Below, piece by piece: positions 2,969 to 13,311 of a stretch of DNA of 14,040 nucleotides; position 1 is the first letter of the stretch, and every line of letters starts with the position of its first letter. A program made the translations under genes and the position numbers. Source of the stretch: Candidatus Heimdallarchaeota archaeon (lineage in GTDB: Archaea; Asgardarchaeota; Wukongarchaeia; Wukongarchaeales; JBHIFL01); assembly GCA_046761065.1 (NCBI GenBank), contig JBHIFL010000094.1:1-14040 (forward strand), given 5' to 3'. The notes under the pieces are model-generated. The model saw only the letters and a list, made by a program, of their open reading frames with translations, was not told the origin of the DNA and did no database searches.

Positions 2969-3045
2969 GCATAACATTCGAATTCACCCGCCTTGCGAGC
3001 CGCTGGAAGCGGCGAGTAAGGTCGGGTGGAATGAGTTGGTATGGG
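2969..3045 (-). other. attC site (R'' degenerate)
   Basis: Minus strand CCCATACCAACTC-ATTCCACCCGACCTT...AAGGCGGGTGAAT-TCGAAT-GTTATGC: paired arms with extra bases on the 5' arm and canonical R' GTTATGC, directly after the stop codon at 3048. Confidence 0.85.
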
Positions 3046-3776: not shown

Positions 3777-3834
3777 GTCCTACGTGCTCTTCAGCCGCAG
3801 CGGTAAGCTGTCGGCTGCAAGAGCAATGTTGGGC
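3777..3834 (-). other. attC site (R' non-canonical GTAGGAC)
   Basis: Minus strand GCCCAAC-ATTGCTCTTGCAGCCGACAGC-TTACC-GCTGCGGCTGAAGAGCAC-GTAGGAC. R'' GCCCAAC is complementary to this cassette's start GTTGGGC at 4359-4353. Confidence 0.9.
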
Positions 3835-3846
3835 GAAATGTATAGG

Positions 3847-4077
3847 TTATTTTGCTACTTGTAGCGCTTCTTCCGCTTCGCGGGGTAATGAGACGAGAAC
3901 AAAGTAGGACTGAGGATAAAGATAATCTTCTCCGGATTCATCAACGACTCGGAGATATCCTTCCTTTTCTGCATCTTCATCCGGCAGTATCTGATAAATC
4001 TTGCGCTTTTCTAAATCCTCGCAGTCCTTATTCTCAATGCAAAGTGCAAATTTATGATTTTCCTTTGTTTTTGCCAT
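3847..4077 (-). CDS. Small acidic hypothetical protein, second gene of a two-gene cassette (possible antitoxin)
   Basis: 76 aa, starts 3 nt after the upstream stop with GGAG in front; motif LRVVDESGEDYLYP; ends just before attC. Confidence 0.8.
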   Translation of the reverse strand: MAKTKENHKFALCIENKDCEDLEKRKIYQILPDEDAEKEGYLRVVDESGEDYLYPQSYFVLVSLPREAEEALQVAK

Positions 4078-4080
4078 AAT

Positions 4081-4326
4081 TTACTCCAAAAACCGTTTGA
4101 TTTTCATTTTCTTTCTACCGATGCCGTGGGCTTCATACCAGTGCACTTCAGCTTTACGGATATTGCCGCTCTGAAGCCTAACCATAGCAAATCCTTTAAG
4201 TTTTCGCCACCGAGCAGAACCAAATTGCCTTTGAAGCCGCATTATATCACGAATCCTTCCACCGATGGCAATAGTTTCAACTTCCTCAATTTCCCTAATT
4301 ATCTCAAAATACATAGGATTTTTCAT
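4081..4326 (-). CDS. Small basic hypothetical protein, first gene of a two-gene cassette (possible toxin)
   Basis: 81 aa, Arg/Lys-rich, motifs WRKLKG and AEVHWYEAHGIG; begins ~30 nt after GTTGGGC (4359-4353). Confidence 0.8.
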   Translation of the reverse strand: MKNPMYFEIIREIEEVETIAIGGRIRDIMRLQRQFGSARWRKLKGFAMVRLQSGNIRKAEVHWYEAHGIGRKKMKIKRFLE

Positions 4327-4352
4327 CCTTATAATTTCAAATCATAGTTTAT

Positions 4353-4396
4353 GCCCAACTATTAATATACAGCATATTGTATATTAATAGTTAGGC
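4353..4396. other. Palindromic double-attI core (bidirectional recombination site)
   Basis: GCCCAAC-TATTAATATACA-GCATAT-TGTATATTAATA-GTTAGGC. 4367-4392 is identical to 8600-8625 (right attI) and the left arm is the exact reverse complement of the attI end. A cassette starts at the GTT on each strand. Confidence 0.85.
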
Positions 4397-4403
4397 ACCT
4401 AAG

Positions 4404-4432
4404 TTGCATCCAAGTAGGCAAAAGTGTATATT
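4404..4432 (+). promoter_or_regulatory. Sigma70-type promoter internal to the TA cassette
   Basis: TTGCAT-17 nt-TATATT, upstream of AAGGAG (4455-4460) and ATG 4469. TA cassettes typically carry their own promoter. Confidence 0.6.
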
Positions 4433-4468
4433 AGAGTGAGGTAAGATTTTTAAAAAGGAGTTTGGGTT

Positions 4469-4699
4469 ATGTCATCCAATGCAATTGCCACGTTGGTCAA
4501 AATGATGGAGTCTTTGCCTGAACCGGTGCAAGATCAAGTAATCCAGCATCTTCGAGAATATCTCTTGGACTTGCAAGATGAGTTGGAATGGAATAGACAG
4601 TTCAAGAAAACACAGAACCAACTAGTTGCTGCTGCAAGACGGGCCAAACGGGAAATCGCGAAGGGGCACGGGAAACCAATGGACTATGACAAATTATGA
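4469..4699 (+). CDS. Putative type II antitoxin
   Basis: 76 aa, AAGGAG RBS, ATGA overlap with the downstream RelE/ParE-like gene, typical ...KPMDYDKL tail. Confidence 0.75.
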   Translation: MSSNAIATLVKMMESLPEPVQDQVIQHLREYLLDLQDELEWNRQFKKTQNQLVAAARRAKREIAKGHGKPMDYDKL

Positions 4700-4962
4700 A
4701 ATCTGCCACACTACCATCTTTTTGGAAGGCATATGAAGCTCTCAGCAAAGAAATTAAACGAAGTGCCAGAAAAGCCTACCAATTATGGGCAAAGAATCCT
4801 TTTCATCCCTCACTCCATTTCAAATGTATCAACACCGAAGAAAACATTTGGTCTGTGAGAATCACGCGTGGTTACCGTGCTATTGGTATTCTTGAGGGAG
4901 ATACAGTTACGTGGTTTTGGATTGGAAGCCACGACAATTATGAGCGCTTTTTCTCGTCCTAG
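4696..4962 (+). CDS. RelE/ParE-superfamily toxin
   Basis: NPFHPSLHFK, WSVRITRGYRAIG and WFWIGSHDNYE motifs; 88 aa; followed by attC. Confidence 0.85.
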   Translation: MKSATLPSFWKAYEALSKEIKRSARKAYQLWAKNPFHPSLHFKCINTEENIWSVRITRGYRAIGILEGDTVTWFWIGSHDNYERFFSS

Positions 4963-4972
4963 AAATAAGGTG

Positions 4973-5034
4973 GCCTAACAACTCGCTGCAGCCGACGCCG
5001 CTGGAGGCGGCGCAACTGAGCTTTATTGTTAGAC
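4973..5034 (+). other. attC site of the TA cassette (plus polarity)
   Basis: GCCTAAC-AACTC-GCTGCAGCCGACGCCGC-TGGAG-GCGGCGCAACTGAGC-TTTATT-GTTAGAC, extra bases on the 5' arm. R'' is complementary to GTTAGGC at 4390-4396. Confidence 0.92.
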
Positions 5035-6279
5035 GGCCTTATTGCCATGTGCACCGCCATGCTCCGCGACGGCTTCACGTAAGACCCTTGCCTGTTCAGA
5101 GAGACCTTTCCGCACCCAATCCCTCCATTGAGGTGTACCGCCCGTTGGAAAACTACCGTCATCCAGAAGAAAGTCAGCCAGTTGAGCGATGAGGAGCAAT
5201 GTCCTGCCATTGTGGCGTGCGAGTAGATCAAGCTAAAAGTTGCTGGTCATTGGCGACGGGCCTTGTGGTGTTTCCGCTACATACCAAAGGAACCACTCCA
5301 GCGCCTCCCACACACTTGACGCCCATTCAAGGGCGTGCCCTTCGGCCCAGAGCTGAGTATCTAAATCTCCTAGCAGTCGGAAGGACGGAGTGTTCTGGAG
5401 ACTCGACAGCAACGATTCCTTATCTACGCCGTGCTCTGCAGCCTGTCGAGCGCATGACACCAGGCCCTCAAGCCATTCATCGGCCTGGTTCAAATCCACG
5501 GGCATGTTGTCTCGTATCGCCTGGAAATCGGGGTTAGGCGGAAATCTTATCTCCCACGAGATGGCCCGAAGATCACAATCGTCTGGCGGGAGCAAAAACA
5601 CTCCTCTTTGTTCGTAAATTCGCCGACTGAACGGAGGCGGGAGCAAAACCGTAAGCGCCGCGTATTTCCAGGCGACTACAGATGGTATCGCAAAAACGAC
5701 GGCATCATGCGTTCGCGCACTTCTAGAGGCGAAGTATATTGCAACAGCAGGATCAGCGGAGAAATCGAGTAGTTTTGAAGCTATTCCGTGGTGGCGACCA
5801 AGAGCTTCAAGTGCGAGACGCCCCGGGTGCACTAACGAAAACTTCCGGTCGCGGGTATGTTCCCAGGGCAAGATGTGGTCGAGTAACAAGACAAACAGAT
5901 CCATAACGTTGCGCTCGTGTTGTTGGTCGACACCTTCGCGGTCTATAGTCGCAACGATTGGCAAAGAGGAGTCGCTCTGACCTCGGTAGTAGCATCTTAC
6001 AGGCTGAGGTTTTGCGGTGGCTGGGTCTTTTGCTAGAAGGAAGTGCTCCAACTCAGTGTACAGGAAAATTCCCGCGTGCCATGGGCTTGGCGCATAGGCC
6101 AGCTTGTCCCCATCGTCGAACGTCACGTCTCGTACGACATTCTTGACCTCGCGTTCAAGGTCGGCAAGGAGTTCTTTGTCAGGCGGAGCGTCTGGGTCCA
6201 GGAACGCCACTATCGGGCCGAAGCGCGGCAACGCGTTGAGTCGGCTCCAGAGTGCCTTGGCCTCCGTAGTCGTTGTCAT
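5029..6279 (-). pseudogene. FRG-domain protein cassette gene with an in-frame TAG at 5233-5235
   Basis: YYRGQSDS..PI, RHHGIASKLLDFSADPAVAIYFAS and RIYEQRGVF are FRG motifs. The frame stays open for 67 codons after the TAG and ends at a TAA (5031-5029) inside GTCTAAC. The 348-aa product may still be expressed. Confidence 0.8.
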
Positions 6280-6304
6280 TCGCTTACCTATCGATCCAAG
6301 GGCC

Positions 6305-6370
6305 GTCTAACGCCTTGCGCGTAACCTGCAGGCGGCGAAGCCGACTGTCAGGTTCATGCGCCTGTTCGAC
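6305..6370 (-). other. attC site (minus polarity)
   Basis: Minus strand GTCGAAC-AGGCGCATGAACCTGACAG...CTGCAGGTTACGCGCAAGGC-GTTAGAC. R'' with flank (CAGTCGAAC) is complementary to the cassette start GTTCGACTG at 6881-6873. Confidence 0.92.
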
Positions 6371-6373
6371 TGC

Positions 6374-6865
6374 TCACTCAACTGGCGTGAAATGTCGGGT
6401 GATGAGTTCCCACTTGTCGCGATGGGCACTGAGGTCCTTGGGCCACACGGCACAATGTACAGACCGAGGATTCCTCGGTCTCACTCGGCCCTTGTATGTC
6501 TTGTGGAAGTGGTCCTGCAAAACCCTCAAAGGGAAGATGTAGAACTCATCCGGTGCATCTGATCTCAGCAGCACGAATACACAATGCAGGTCTGGATTTG
6601 CCAGTCGCTTCTTTCCCTTCACCACCTGTCGATCACCCTCAAAGGCAATCTTCAGGAAGCGAGTAGCTCTGAACTGCCAGGACGGTCCGTTGATCGCCTT
6701 CACTTGGATTGGCAGCGAGTGACCAGACAAGTCTGAAGCCAGCAAGTCGATCTCTGGCACATTTCCAGCGAAGGGTGTTGCCAGTATACCTCGACGACCA
6801 AGTTCAGCGACGACGAGATGCTCACCTATCTGTCGAGTGAGTTGATTGCTGAAACCGCGCTTCAT
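6374..6865 (-). CDS. PD-(D/E)XK nuclease-fold protein, first cassette of the left array
   Basis: GEHLVVAELGRRG...PEIDLL...IQVK catalytic pattern; lies between attI-left and attC. Confidence 0.75.
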   Translation of the reverse strand: MKRGFSNQLTRQIGEHLVVAELGRRGILATPFAGNVPEIDLLASDLSGHSLPIQVKAINGPSWQFRATRFLKIAFEGDRQVVKGKKRLANPDLHCVFVLLRSDAPDEFYIFPLRVLQDHFHKTYKGRVRPRNPRSVHCAVWPKDLSAHRDKWELITRHFTPVE

Positions 6866-6874
6866 CGCATGTCA

Positions 6875-7020
6875 GTCGAACTATTAATGTACAGCATGCT
6901 GTATTTGATACAAACCGCCCTCAGTAAACGTCATATATTAAGTGGTTTTATCAATTATCCCCGTGAAATTACAGTATTATCTTAATATTATCCATATTAG
7001 ATTGCAAGTCGTATATTCGA
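6875..7020 (-). repeat. attI-left / Pc region (copy 1 of inverted repeat)
   Basis: Canonical position upstream of and divergent from intI; ends ...ATTAATAG|TTCGAC at the first cassette; 126/142 identical by hand alignment to 8484-8625 in inverted orientation. Confidence 0.88.
6979..7007 (-). promoter_or_regulatory. Pc-like promoter for the left array
   Basis: TTGCAA-17 nt-TAAGAT pointing at the attI crossover; lies in the 47-bp block perfectly conserved between the repeats. Confidence 0.65.
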
Positions 7021-7051
7021 TGGCTTTAGTATCCAGCCTGGGAGCAATGGA

Positions 7052-8353
7052 TTGAATAATCAACGAAAAAACCTCGCCGAATTTGAAGATTTTATCAAGC
7101 GTTTCCGTCTAGTTCCCCCGAAAAAAACCCGATTTTATGTTTATTGGGTAGAGCGGTTTATTAAATATTATAAATTCAGGTCTTCCAAACCATTAAAACA
7201 AACCATTGCTGCTTACCTTGAGACTATGGAAACGGATTCACGTTTTGCCGAATGGCAAGTCAAACAGGCGGCGGATGCCATTCTGTTATATGCTGAAAAA
7301 TATCTCAAATCAGATAAAAGACCTCTTGCCCTTTCGATAAATTATCCAGTTGATTTGAAAAAAGATGTTTCGGACAAGATATTCAACAAGACAAGCTGGA
7401 AAGGAATCTTAGATAAATTGCATGAAAGTTTACGGCTTCGACATTATTCCCCCAGGACGGAAAAATCTTATCGCATTTGGATCAATAAATTCCGGAATTA
7501 CGTAAACGATCGCGATCCCCTATTGCTTGAGGGGAAGGAAGTAAAAGACTTCTTGACCCATATCGCTCTCCATGATCGAGTTTCGGCTTCCACACAAAAC
7601 CAGGCTTTTAATGCTCTATTGTATCTTTTCCGGAATATTTTACAGAAAGACTTGAGCAATCTGAAAGATACTATAAGGGCACGGCGGAGGAGAAAATTAC
7701 CGGTTGTTTTGACTCGAGAAGAGGTCCAGCAGCTGTTTTCCTTTCTCGAGAGTCCCTATATTCTTATGGCTCAACTGCTTTACGGAAGCGGTCTCCGCCT
7801 GCTTGAATGCATCCGCTTGAGAGTCAAGGATATCGATTTCGCCAATAATGTATTGATCATCCGGGCAGGAAAAGGCGAGAAAGATAGAACCACCATACTC
7901 GCGGATAAAATCAAGGAATCTCTGAAATCACATTTGCATAGAATTAAGAGACTTCACCGCGAAGATTTAGCGGAAAGATACAACGTCACAACGCTTCCAG
8001 ATGCTCTGGAGAAAAAATATCCGAATGCCAACAAAGAATGGGCCTGGCAATGGGTATTTCCCTCGAAAAGCCTAGTGCTCCATCCCAAGAATGGAAAGGT
8101 CTTGCGTCATCATATTCAACCAAGCACCCTTCAGAGAAAGATCAAGGAAGCCGTAAGAAAATCTGATATTTCCAAACCGGCAAGCTGTCACACGCTCCGG
8201 CACAGTTTCGCTACGCATCTTTTGGAAGCAGGGCACAATATCCGAACAATTCAGGAGCTCATGGGACATAAAAACGTGAACACCACAATGATATACACTC
8301 ATGTTGTTCGAAAGAGCTATTCAGACATTTCCAGTCCTTTGGACAAGCTGTAG
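7052..8353 (+). CDS. intI: Integron integrase, long form with N-terminal extension
   Basis: Tyrosine recombinase motifs YGSGLR, GKGEKDR, HTLRHSFATHLL, LMGH and TTMIYTHV, plus the integron-specific insert LPDALEKKYPNANKEWAWQWVFPS. TTG start after GGAG. Confidence 0.97.
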   Translation: MNNQRKNLAEFEDFIKRFRLVPPKKTRFYVYWVERFIKYYKFRSSKPLKQTIAAYLETMETDSRFAEWQVKQAADAILLYAEKYLKSDKRPLALSINYPVDLKKDVSDKIFNKTSWKGILDKLHESLRLRHYSPRTEKSYRIWINKFRNYVNDRDPLLLEGKEVKDFLTHIALHDRVSASTQNQAFNALLYLFRNILQKDLSNLKDTIRARRRRKLPVVLTREEVQQLFSFLESPYILMAQLLYGSGLRLLECIRLRVKDIDFANNVLIIRAGKGEKDRTTILADKIKESLKSHLHRIKRLHREDLAERYNVTTLPDALEKKYPNANKEWAWQWVFPSKSLVLHPKNGKVLRHHIQPSTLQRKIKEAVRKSDISKPASCHTLRHSFATHLLEAGHNIRTIQELMGHKNVNTTMIYTHVVRKSYSDISSPLDKL

Positions 8354-8483
8354 AGAAGGGATAGAACTTAACTCAAGAAAAACTGTTCCTATTAATTTCC
8401 CAGGCTATAGTCTTTTGCGATAAAATAAAAAAAGTGATTTCTTCTACAAATTCTATGGCAGGCGATGATGGATATTAAAGGAG

Positions 8484-8629
8484 TCGAATATACGACTTGC
8501 AATCTAATATGGATAATATTAAGATAATACGGCAATTATGCGGGGATATTCGATGAAACCATTTAATATACGACGTTAATTGAGGGCAGTTTGTATCAAA
8601 TACAGCATATTGTATATTAATAGTTGGGC
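8484..8629 (+). repeat. attI-right / Pc region (copy 2, downstream of intI)
   Basis: Inverted copy of 6879-7020. Similarity stops right after ...ATTAATAGTT, where a cassette begins (GTTGGGCGGCAT). Confidence 0.88.
8497..8525 (+). promoter_or_regulatory. Pc-like promoter for the right array
   Basis: TTGCAA-17 nt-TAAGAT, identical to the left copy. Confidence 0.65.
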
Positions 8630-8642
8630 GGCATAGGTTATC

Positions 8643-9263
8643 GTGGAAGAGCACATGAGTACAGGCAACATGGGTCTGTTGATTCTCCGCGCATTGTCGC
8701 GGGCGCGCATTCCGATCTTGACGGTCGGCTTGACCTATCTCGTCACAGTTGTGATTGGAATCGTGATGGCGCATGCGGGGAATGAGTTTGCTCTGTCCCA
8801 TAGGGACAGCGTTGTAGCCAAGGCACAGGGGAGTCCCATCGTAATAGCCCTCCGCGAAGGTAACGGGCTGCGTGCTGCTCTGCTTGACTTCGGTGGCAAT
8901 CTCGTTGGCGCTCTCGCAAATACCCTCGGCGGATTAGGTGTTATCGTCCCATATCCTGTAGTAGCGTATCGTGGCTGGATCGGCGGTATCGTTTCAGTGG
9001 ATGGTGCTCATGTGAGCCGATTGATGAATCCCGGTGAGGCCGTGTACTATATCTTCACCTTGATTCTCCAACTCATTCCCTACTCGTTGGCTGGCGGAGC
9101 GGGGGTGAACTTGGGGGTGGCATATTTCCGTCCACGAGTCTTCTATCAAGGCGAGAAATGGCTAGGATTGCCAAAGGAAGCGATTCGGGATGTGCTTAGG
9201 ATTTATCTGCTCGTAGTGCCGCTGTTTCTCGTTGCCGCCCTGTGGGAGTTTCTTGCACGGTAA
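8643..9263 (+). CDS. SpoIIM/DUF95-like integral membrane protein, first cassette of the right array
   Basis: Several hydrophobic helices, YRGWIGGIV, LQLIPYSLAGGAG, C-terminal PLFLVAALWEF; between attI-right and attC. Start may be ATG 8655. Confidence 0.75.
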   Translation: MEEHMSTGNMGLLILRALSRARIPILTVGLTYLVTVVIGIVMAHAGNEFALSHRDSVVAKAQGSPIVIALREGNGLRAALLDFGGNLVGALANTLGGLGVIVPYPVVAYRGWIGGIVSVDGAHVSRLMNPGEAVYYIFTLILQLIPYSLAGGAGVNLGVAYFRPRVFYQGEKWLGLPKEAIRDVLRIYLLVVPLFLVAALWEFLAR

Positions 9264-9302
9264 CTTGGACTGCAGCCGAGACCACATTTGGAACGAAATG
9301 CC

Positions 9303-9372
9303 GCCCAACACGCGCTTGCAGCCGACCCTGCTCCGCTGCGCTCCGCAGGGCGGCTAAAGCGCCCCGTTAACC
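9303..9372 (+). other. attC site (plus polarity)
   Basis: GCCCAAC-ACGCGCTTGCAGCCGACCCTGC...GCAGGGCGGCTAAAGCGCCCC-GTTAACC. ATGCCGCCCAAC (9298-9309) is the perfect 12-nt complement of GTTGGGCGGCAT (8623-8634). Confidence 0.93.
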
Positions 9373-10263: not shown

Positions 10264-10644
10264 AAATGATATTGAGGTAATCTCTGCATTTTTGGATGAA
10301 AAATCGTCATTAGGGAGGACACTTGTATATTAATATAGACACTTAATTGAGAAGGAACTCGCCTTTACTGCGGAAAATCGAATAATTATAAAAATCCCCT
10401 TATTTAATTAACGTTTTTACCCCCTAAAAACGCTCATTTAAGCAAAATAGTAAGGGGAGGACTGAAGCTAACTTATTGAAAATAAAATAGATACCTAGGC
10501 CCGACCCTTTATGGCGATTTCCACTGTGACCGGGTTTTCTCCTCTTTTCTTTATTGCTAGACTTTGTCCCAAAGTGACTGGATTTTGAATCTCAACCAAA
10601 CTGTCACCCGCAATTACTTTTATTCTGTCAGAGGGAAAAATTAG

Positions 10645-12511: not shown

Positions 12512-12868
12512 ATGGAGATCCAATTTTCAACACACCTGCTTGATAAGGCATTAGAAAAAAAGAAATCCCAAAGAGAAAAACTCAGGTTAAAGACTATAAA
12601 AAAAATTAACCATGTCTTAAACAAGCTTTCCCATGATATTCAGTTTAAAGAAGTCTATATCTTTGGCTCATTGACAAAACCTCACAGGTTCTCAAAAAAT
12701 TCAGACATAGATATGGGATTTATCGGGCTTAGAGATGAAGATTTTTTTAAAGCTCTTGCTTTTCTTTTAAGGGAATTGGAATTTGAAGTTGATATAATAC
12801 AGCTTGAAAGGCATAGATTCAGAGATAAAATAATGAGGGAAAGTATAAAATGGACCAAAAAAGACTGA
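12512..12868 (+). CDS. Minimal nucleotidyltransferase (MNT) antitoxin
   Basis: VYIFGSL....F...SDID (GSx10DxD) and EVDII; overlaps the HEPN gene. Confidence 0.9.
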   Translation: MEIQFSTHLLDKALEKKKSQREKLRLKTIKKINHVLNKLSHDIQFKEVYIFGSLTKPHRFSKNSDIDMGFIGLRDEDFFKALAFLLRELEFEVDIIQLERHRFRDKIMRESIKWTKKD

Positions 12869-13311
12869 ATCTATTACAAGGAGATATACAGGCCCAAATT
12901 AGAGAAATAGAGAAGATCTATGTCAGAATTGGAGAAAGAAAGAACAAAAAGGGCATCGCAAATCTTGAAAGTCTCGGTTATCAGCTCCACAATCTTTATT
13001 GTGCTTTTGAAGATCTTTTCAAAATAGTGGCTGATTATTTTGAAAACAATATAGAAGAAAAGAAAAAATATCATCGGGAACTCCTAGTGCGCATGACCGT
13101 ATCCATCGAAGGAATAAGGCCCGCTTTACTATCCGAAGAATCACATAAACTTCTTGATTCTCTGAGAGCCTTCAGGCATTTTTTTCGCCATGCCTATACC
13201 TATGAACTCGAGCCGAAAAAAGTCAAAATTGTCCTGGAAGATTCCCTCAGACTCAAACCAATTTACCCCAGGGATATCAAATCTTTTTTACATAAACTTG
13301 GTGTTTCCTAA
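12850..13311 (+). CDS. HEPN (HepT-like) ribonuclease toxin
   Basis: LHNLYCAFEDLFKIVA, YHRELL and LRAFRHFFRHAY (Rx4H). Confidence 0.9.
   Translation: MDQKRLNLLQGDIQAQIREIEKIYVRIGERKNKKGIANLESLGYQLHNLYCAFEDLFKIVADYFENNIEEKKKYHRELLVRMTVSIEGIRPALLSEESHKLLDSLRAFRHFFRHAYTYELEPKKVKIVLEDSLRLKPIYPRDIKSFLHKLGVS

Follow-up and report, generated by a model that had tools for sequence, protein, structure and literature searches.

A predicted two-armed integron platform with one integrase gene between inverted attI modules

Introduction

To our knowledge, integrons have always been described with one integrase, one attachment site (attI), one promoter and one cassette array, and in the standard scheme cassette expression drops with distance from the cassette promoter (Pc). 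Here we analyse a contig of 14,040 bp (JBHIFL010000094.1 of assembly GCA_046761065.1, filed under Candidatus Heimdallarchaeota archaeon; the whole contig is hereafter the window) in which a single integron integrase gene, intI, is flanked by two inverted copies of an attI-like module, each adjoined by cassettes that point away from the integrase. With a probability of roughly 0.86, we read this locus as a complete integron built on a two-armed platform, that is, one intact IntI gene between inverted attI modules of about 157 bp.

The canonical sedentary chromosomal integrons, such as that of Vibrio cholerae with its integrase VchIntIA, share many features with this locus: an IntI carrying the integron-specific insert, an attI that ends at G|TT, attC sites that are strand-asymmetric imperfect palindromes, cassettes with promoterless open reading frames (ORFs), toxin-antitoxin genes and defence-type genes, and a chromosomal setting in uncultured environmental bacteria. 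They differ from it in having one attI module and one array, where the present locus has two inverted modules and two diverging arrays, and their integrases are shorter by about 110 residues at the N-terminus. Within the class 1 integron, attI1 comprises L and R boxes, the accessory sites DR1 and DR2, Pc and a short ORF-11. A further point of comparison lies outside integrons, in the Hin system, where an invertible segment holds the recombinase gene between its own inverted sites, hixL and hixR. The present locus is Hin-like in placing a recombinase gene between inverted sites of its own, such that recombination of one site with the other would flip the gene; it differs in that the enzyme is a tyrosine integron integrase and not a serine invertase, the sites are points of cassette insertion, and inversion is only possible.

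In the 'reverse' or inverted-integrase integrons of Treponema and others (PMC4889954), intI and a single array run in the same direction, as on the right side of our locus, whereas the integrase described here additionally stands at the head of a canonical divergent array to its left. The same study, which is the founding IntegronFinder paper, presents single-array layouts only, the inverted-integrase group included. In standard integron software, attC sites are clustered strand by strand (Cury et al. 2016, PMC4889954), and an element with two opposed arrays would therefore be split into an integron and an unrelated CALIN (an integrase-less cassette cluster). This may affect how many integrons and CALINs are counted in environmental genomes. 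An initial reading of the window made without database searches (the sequence-only reading) had left the novelty of the layout unverified; our full-text literature search, which took in integrons of Aminicenantes, yielded no account of a single intI flanked by two attI sites or two arrays.

An integron integrase gene between two inverted arms

The central gene (7052-8353, plus strand) is intact and encodes a protein of 433 residues that matches the integron integrase profile TIGR02249 at 441.4 bits (cut-off 265) over profile positions 1-315 of 315, contains PF13495, in two stretches, and PF00589 according to Pfam, and aligns to VchIntIA (PDB 2a3v) with E = 1.7e-81. The IntI-specific insert (I2 helix region) is present, as residues 300-350 align to 2a3v with just one 1-residue gap, the ALxxKYPNA motif included. 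We checked the tyrosine recombinase catalytic set R, K, HxxR, H and Y, and the motifs GSGLRL, GKGEKDR, HTLRHSFATHLL, GH and IYTHV each align to the same motifs of 2a3v. Judged by these alignments, the middle gene is a genuine IntI. Its N-terminal extension of 118 residues (7052-7405) is common to thousands of 'long' IntIs of about 430 residues, and the homologues of this integrase are 427-433 residues long; BLASTP comparison of the 118 residues with the core-binding domain found no similarity, although Pfam does report a second PF13495 stretch.

A repeat search of the window identified an ungapped inverted pair of 157 nt on either side of the gene that is 87% complementary, with 20 mismatches upon recounting. 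The left arm (6879-7035) reads outward on the minus strand and would comprise attI-L and the candidate Pc-L, with its crossover G|TT at 6881|6880, while the right arm (8469-8625) reads outward on the plus strand and would comprise attI-R and the candidate Pc-R, with its crossover at 8623|8624. The sequence-only reading had reported 16 mismatches over 142 nt of this pair (6879-7020 and 8484-8625), an identical innermost run of 47 bp, and similarity that ends at the GTT on each side; our recount returned exactly 16, placed the end of the 47-bp run at 7020, and found that similarity indeed breaks off at AAC (left) and GTT (right). The ten bases past the arm ends differ (ATGTCAGTCG versus TATGCCGCCC). 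Searching the 4.4-Mb assembly with the arm gave significant matches to these two copies only, and chance is no explanation for the pair.

A consensus built from 66 arms orders the parts of the module from inside to outside. Innermost is the repeat ATATACGAC, which is followed by a conserved, outward-facing hexamer pair, TTGCAA-17 nt-TAAGAT (candidate -35 at 7007-7002 and candidate -10 at 6984-6979 in the left arm; 8497-8502 and 8520-8525 in the right), and then by a GGGGATA block. A second, direct copy of ATATACGAC lies 78 nt past the first (8488 and 8566 in the right arm), after which come a GAGGG motif, a 9-codon ORF with a TTG start, small inverted repeats near the outer end (TGTAT-CAA-ATACA-GCATGC-TGTAT; the TGTAT/ATACA palindrome is also in the left arm) and, outermost, the core ...ATTAATAG|TT.

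These parts recall attI1, in that each arm has a crossover core, two direct repeats, an outward promoter-like pair, and a 9-codon ORF behind GAGGG that ends just before the crossover. There is, however, no sequence similarity to attI1, the module here is duplicated and inverted, and the binding and promoter roles of the arm elements are putative. By analogy, the ATATACGAC repeats could act as accessory sites for IntI, with the hexamers as a possible Pc; that each arm has a Pc of its own is something we infer solely from the conserved hexamers. The stretch with the GAGGG motif and the 9-codon ORF (...YQIQH...) spans 8582-8623 and is mirrored at 6881-6922. The ORF ends in TAATAG immediately ahead of the crossover and recalls ORF-11 of attI1, its conservation being compatible with a coding role and with a DNA site.

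The two-armed layout recurs in related loci

Integrase scans returned related loci in species-representative genomes (41) and metagenomes (80). The arm is present in 57 of them, and in 29 both arms are found inverted around intI; most loci with a single arm are cut by the contig end or have a fragmented integrase. Each of the 79 arm copies has ...ATTAATAG|TT or a near variant as its outer end; the bases that follow are unrelated, mostly RRRY. Relatives of the integrase at 54% identity or less showed no inverted repeat flanking intI, which makes the layout an innovation of this clade. By these comparisons, the layout is recurrent in a clade of uncultured sediment bacteria.

We also asked how old the duplication is. 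Of 66 distinct arms, 53 are closest to an arm on the same side of another locus and only three to their own partner, while conservation is equal on the two sides (81% between upstream arms and 80% between downstream arms). Since same-side arms are nearest to one another, the duplication is old, with both arms kept. The sequence-only reading had recognised that homologues lacking the second copy would point to a one-off duplication; we examined homologues for its absence, and the 29 loci that retain both arms favour the two-sided reading.

Some relatives carry more than one module. An extra solo arm is found in one locus (L060, 2068-2206), another (L125) has arms at 460-616 and 3991-4120, modules can face each other, and the number of arms per genome reaches nine (nine in G401, six in G402). 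Platforms multiply and decay in these relatives.

Cassette arrays diverge from the integrase and turn over on both sides

To score attC orientation, we first checked the orientation convention on a known case, the attC of aadA1 in plasmid R100, which lies just past aadA1 and away from intI1, in the expected orientation. We then trained a covariance model (R1) on 22 plus-strand attC sites, all from the right-hand side of platforms in related loci. The model separates the strands strongly, for example with 69.5 versus 21.5 bits for one site. It recognises five attC sites in the window, and in the relatives more than 120. Counting distinct non-training sites in all arm-bearing loci, we found 67 minus-strand and 3 plus-strand sites to the left of the platform and 48 plus-strand and 2 minus-strand sites to its right (Fisher p = 2.7e-27). 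As attC sites lie on opposite strands to the left and right, the arrays diverge, and the two divergent arrays proposed by the sequence-only reading thus reappear in a covariance scan of both strands, with the sites of each side pointing away from the integrase.

Two earlier measures were set aside. A first attC screen required complementarity between R'' and R' and missed sites; the rule was dropped because the outer half of R' in an array comes from the next cassette. A bulge-asymmetry score computed from minimum-energy folds did separate the two sides (45:10 and 6:34) but mis-handled the central unpaired spacer and gave the wrong signs for the window's own sites; the covariance model took its place.

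Comparison of arms with their flanks indicates that cassettes next to the platform are exchanged. We compared loci whose arms are 99-100% identical over 140 nt, taking flanks past the GTT at 20-30% identity as unrelated. By this measure, both arms are near-identical with unrelated flanks between L059/L060 and L072, the same holds for the downstream arm between L062 and L063 and between L069 and L073, and for the upstream arm between L010 and L069. Conversely, cassettes are common to opposite sides of different loci, always in the same outward orientation: the left side of L065 equals the right side of L073 at 97.7% over 1,800 nt and that of L080 at 99.2%, and the left side of L128 equals the right side of L031 at 97.6%. 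These shared cassettes, taken with the differing flanks, show that the cassettes of both sides come from a common pool and are turned over, and recombination at both sites is supported by this comparative evidence. At about 2300-2340 in L073, we also noted a cassette boundary at which the full hairpin site is replaced by an extremely short joint resembling attC, GTCTAAT-ATAT-GTTATGC.

Cassettes and a 44-bp double core in the window

On the right, the cassette that adjoins the arm (8624-9366, plus strand) carries a GC-rich ORF for a SpoIIM-like membrane protein (8643-9263) followed by its attC (9303-9372, plus strand; R'' GCCCAAC, R' GTTAACC), which scores 44.5 bits in the covariance model (E = 9e-9). 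On the left, the adjoining cassette (6311-6880, minus strand) carries an ORF of 163 residues (6865-6374), for which no family match was found, followed by an attC of 42.9 bits (6305-6370, minus strand). The sequence-only reading had taken complementarity between the ends of each first cassette and its own attC as the footprint of integrase-mediated insertion. This complementarity is real and unique, as ATGCCGCCCAAC is present only at 8623-8634 (minus) and 9298-9309 (plus), CAGTCGAAC is present only at 6873-6881 (plus) and 6364-6372 (minus), and for each 0 of 200 shuffles gave two matches. It does not serve as an indicator of array direction, since the signature is symmetric and holds for either strand, and we dropped it as proof of direction; direction is not shown by end complementarity alone.

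Farther left, a segment bounded by GTTAGAC...GTCTAAC (5035-6304, minus strand) contains an ORF with similarity to FRG-domain and PDC-S15-like proteins (6279-5233). This gene sits between two converging attC sites, and two arrays would meet in this segment. The second of these sites (4973-5034, plus strand, 37.6 bits) is the sole discordant attC in the window, being plus-oriented on the left of intI; its minus strand folds more stably. It lies 3' of the genes of a toxin-antitoxin cassette (4391-5028, plus strand) that encodes an antitoxin-like protein (4469-4699) and a ParE-like toxin (4696-4962). Next is a minus-strand cassette (3783-4358) with two small ORFs (4326-4081 and 4077-3847), whose attC (3777-3834, minus strand) scores 25.6 bits and has a degenerate R' (GTA for GTT). 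Of the attC sites that the model recognises in the left array, the outermost (2969-3044, minus strand, 41.6 bits) lies 3' of a DUF4145 ORF (3767-3048).

Where the two last-named cassettes meet, at 4353-4396, lies a near-perfect palindrome of 44 nt, AAC-TATTAATATACA-GCATAT-TGTATATTAATA-GTT, that has the form of two back-to-back attI cores and that we refer to as the double core. Each half corresponds to the outermost 26-30 nt of an arm (direct repeats of 97% and 88%), and the cassettes diverge from it, the minus-oriented one at 4358-3783 to the left and the plus-oriented one at 4391-5028 to the right. In its simplest reading, the double core would be a neighbouring two-armed platform that lost intI and the inner parts of its arms. 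Such a loss could proceed by deletion between copies of the small core ATACAGCAT..TGTAT, which is present as a direct repeat in both arms because it is nearly palindromic. Tandem modules with converging arrays are seen in the relatives L060 and L125. The rest of this genome and the 120 related loci contain no second solo double core.

Alternative explanations and a proposed mechanism

In place of the canonical single attI and single array, the window and 29 relatives present two inverted attI modules and two diverging arrays. Two occupied attI sites around one integrase, as the sequence-only reading had it, gain support from the 29 loci, the G|TT ends, the outward attC sites and the differing first cassettes. 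Several observations nevertheless weigh against this interpretation. In the window, the right array has one complete cassette only, and the left side is not one clean array, as it holds the plus-oriented attC at 4973-5034 and what appears to be a collapsed second platform. Across the loci, 5 of 120 non-training attC sites point the 'wrong' way, that site included (the right-side one in L125 precedes a second, oppositely facing arm and therefore belongs to the neighbouring module), and the attC covariance model was built in this analysis and is not that of IntegronFinder. One locus with a full-length intI (L061) is without a downstream arm, and in another (L010) that arm is truncated. A promoter scan of the window did not list the TTGCAA/TAAGAT hexamers, as only 8 of 12 consensus positions match, and both Pc are for that reason termed candidates.

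The arm-intI-arm unit might instead be mobile as a whole, either in the manner of a transposon, with terminal inverted repeats and a palindromic, attC-like target, or by way of a giant attC into which the arms fold in single-stranded DNA, which would make intI part of a cassette. The flanking cassettes would then be a pre-existing array and, in the transposon version, the palindrome at 4353-4396 an empty target. The match between the outer 26-30 nt of the arms and the halves of the palindrome is consistent with this idea, as are the small core ATACAGCAT..TGTAT in both arms, the several arms per relative genome (nine in G401, six in G402) and the modules in tandem at L060 and L125. Insertion into one array, however, would leave attC sites facing the same way on both sides, in contrast to the observed minus:plus counts of 67:3 (left) and 2:48 (right), and the conserved arm reaches the crossover G|TT in 79 of 79 copies. 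The double core, found once in this genome and the 120 related loci, is not a common target, and the cassettes beside it diverge in the manner of a platform. Where a transposon would leave target-site duplications, recurrent empty targets and continuous flanks, we find opposed flanking arrays and one solo double core. As for a giant attC, the arms are ungapped, and the folded stem would therefore be without the extrahelical bases by which the strand is selected in attC sites. We consider mobility of the whole unit improbable.

Still less probable is that only one attI works, the other arm being an inert relic of an old duplication and inversion that abuts a CALIN. Strand grouping of the IntegronFinder type would indeed call a complete integron plus a CALIN here, and the right array in the window is very short; set against this, both arms are equally conserved and kept in side-specific lineages, platforms that are nearly identical begin their arrays, left and right, with different cassettes, and the exact core and GTT are retained in every copy of both arms. 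An artefact of metagenome assembly, such as a chimeric join or a fold-back at the repeat, might be suspected in a 14-kb contig that is the whole of the window and comes from a genome with 8% contamination, but the arms are 13% diverged and cannot be collapsed identical repeats, and about 29 contigs with the same layout come from many unrelated projects that used different assemblers, which leaves this explanation with a negligible share.

In the two-armed integron that we favour, the integrase would recombine the folded bottom strands of attC sites of circular cassettes with either attI, following canonical chemistry. New cassettes would enter beside either arm and the arrays would grow outward in opposite directions, an outcome that the comparison of loci shows. 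The outward TTGCAA-17 nt-TAAGAT pair of each arm is probably its cassette promoter, and if each arm has a Pc, the number of promoter-proximal slots is doubled to two. The arrays necessarily oppose each other relative to replication and, given that orientation to replication sets cassette excision rates (Loot et al. 2017, PMC5371416), one of them should excise cassettes more readily. The window, with its apparently intact integrase and both arms, makes the idea testable at the bench.

Two arms would also put two inverted IntI sites around the integrase gene, and this mirrored attI pair might itself be a substrate, by attI x attI inversion of the arm-intI-arm segment or as a giant attC that moves intI; we regard either as doubtful, if somewhat short of implausible. 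Should inversion take place, the arrays would swap replication sides, and with them whether attC folding is favoured, which would amount to a 'shuffle'/'store' switch. The cross-side arrays (L065 left with L073 and L080 right), the several modules per genome and the tandem modules (L060, L125) are compatible with inversion or a giant attC and require neither.

Host assignment and neighbouring features

The contig belongs to a 4.4-Mb metagenome-assembled genome that is 91% complete with 8% contamination. Its composition is no outlier within the bin (GC 0.43 versus 0.42; tetranucleotide distance at the 80th percentile). The arm was not found in the two other genomes of the same class or in 399 others sampled from the phylum, and 29 of the 300 genomes sampled from the class of the relative L016 (Candidatus Aminicenantes) have it. 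The contig may be mis-binned or transferred.

Rfam returned no family matches anywhere in the window. The right part of the contig is AT-rich and includes a nucleotidyltransferase/HepT-like toxin-antitoxin pair (12512-13311), around which the attC model found no attC. Also on the right, a short stretch at 10320-10351 resembles the middle of the arm (TTGTATATTAATA..., followed by 22 nt that match 8563-8584 at 77%) and could be a decayed third arm or chance similarity in AT-rich DNA. The left contig end has genes at 255-1625 and 1635-2987, comprising an IS256/Mutator-family transposase gene and, beside it and just beyond the outermost attC, an ORF of 450 residues without a family match.

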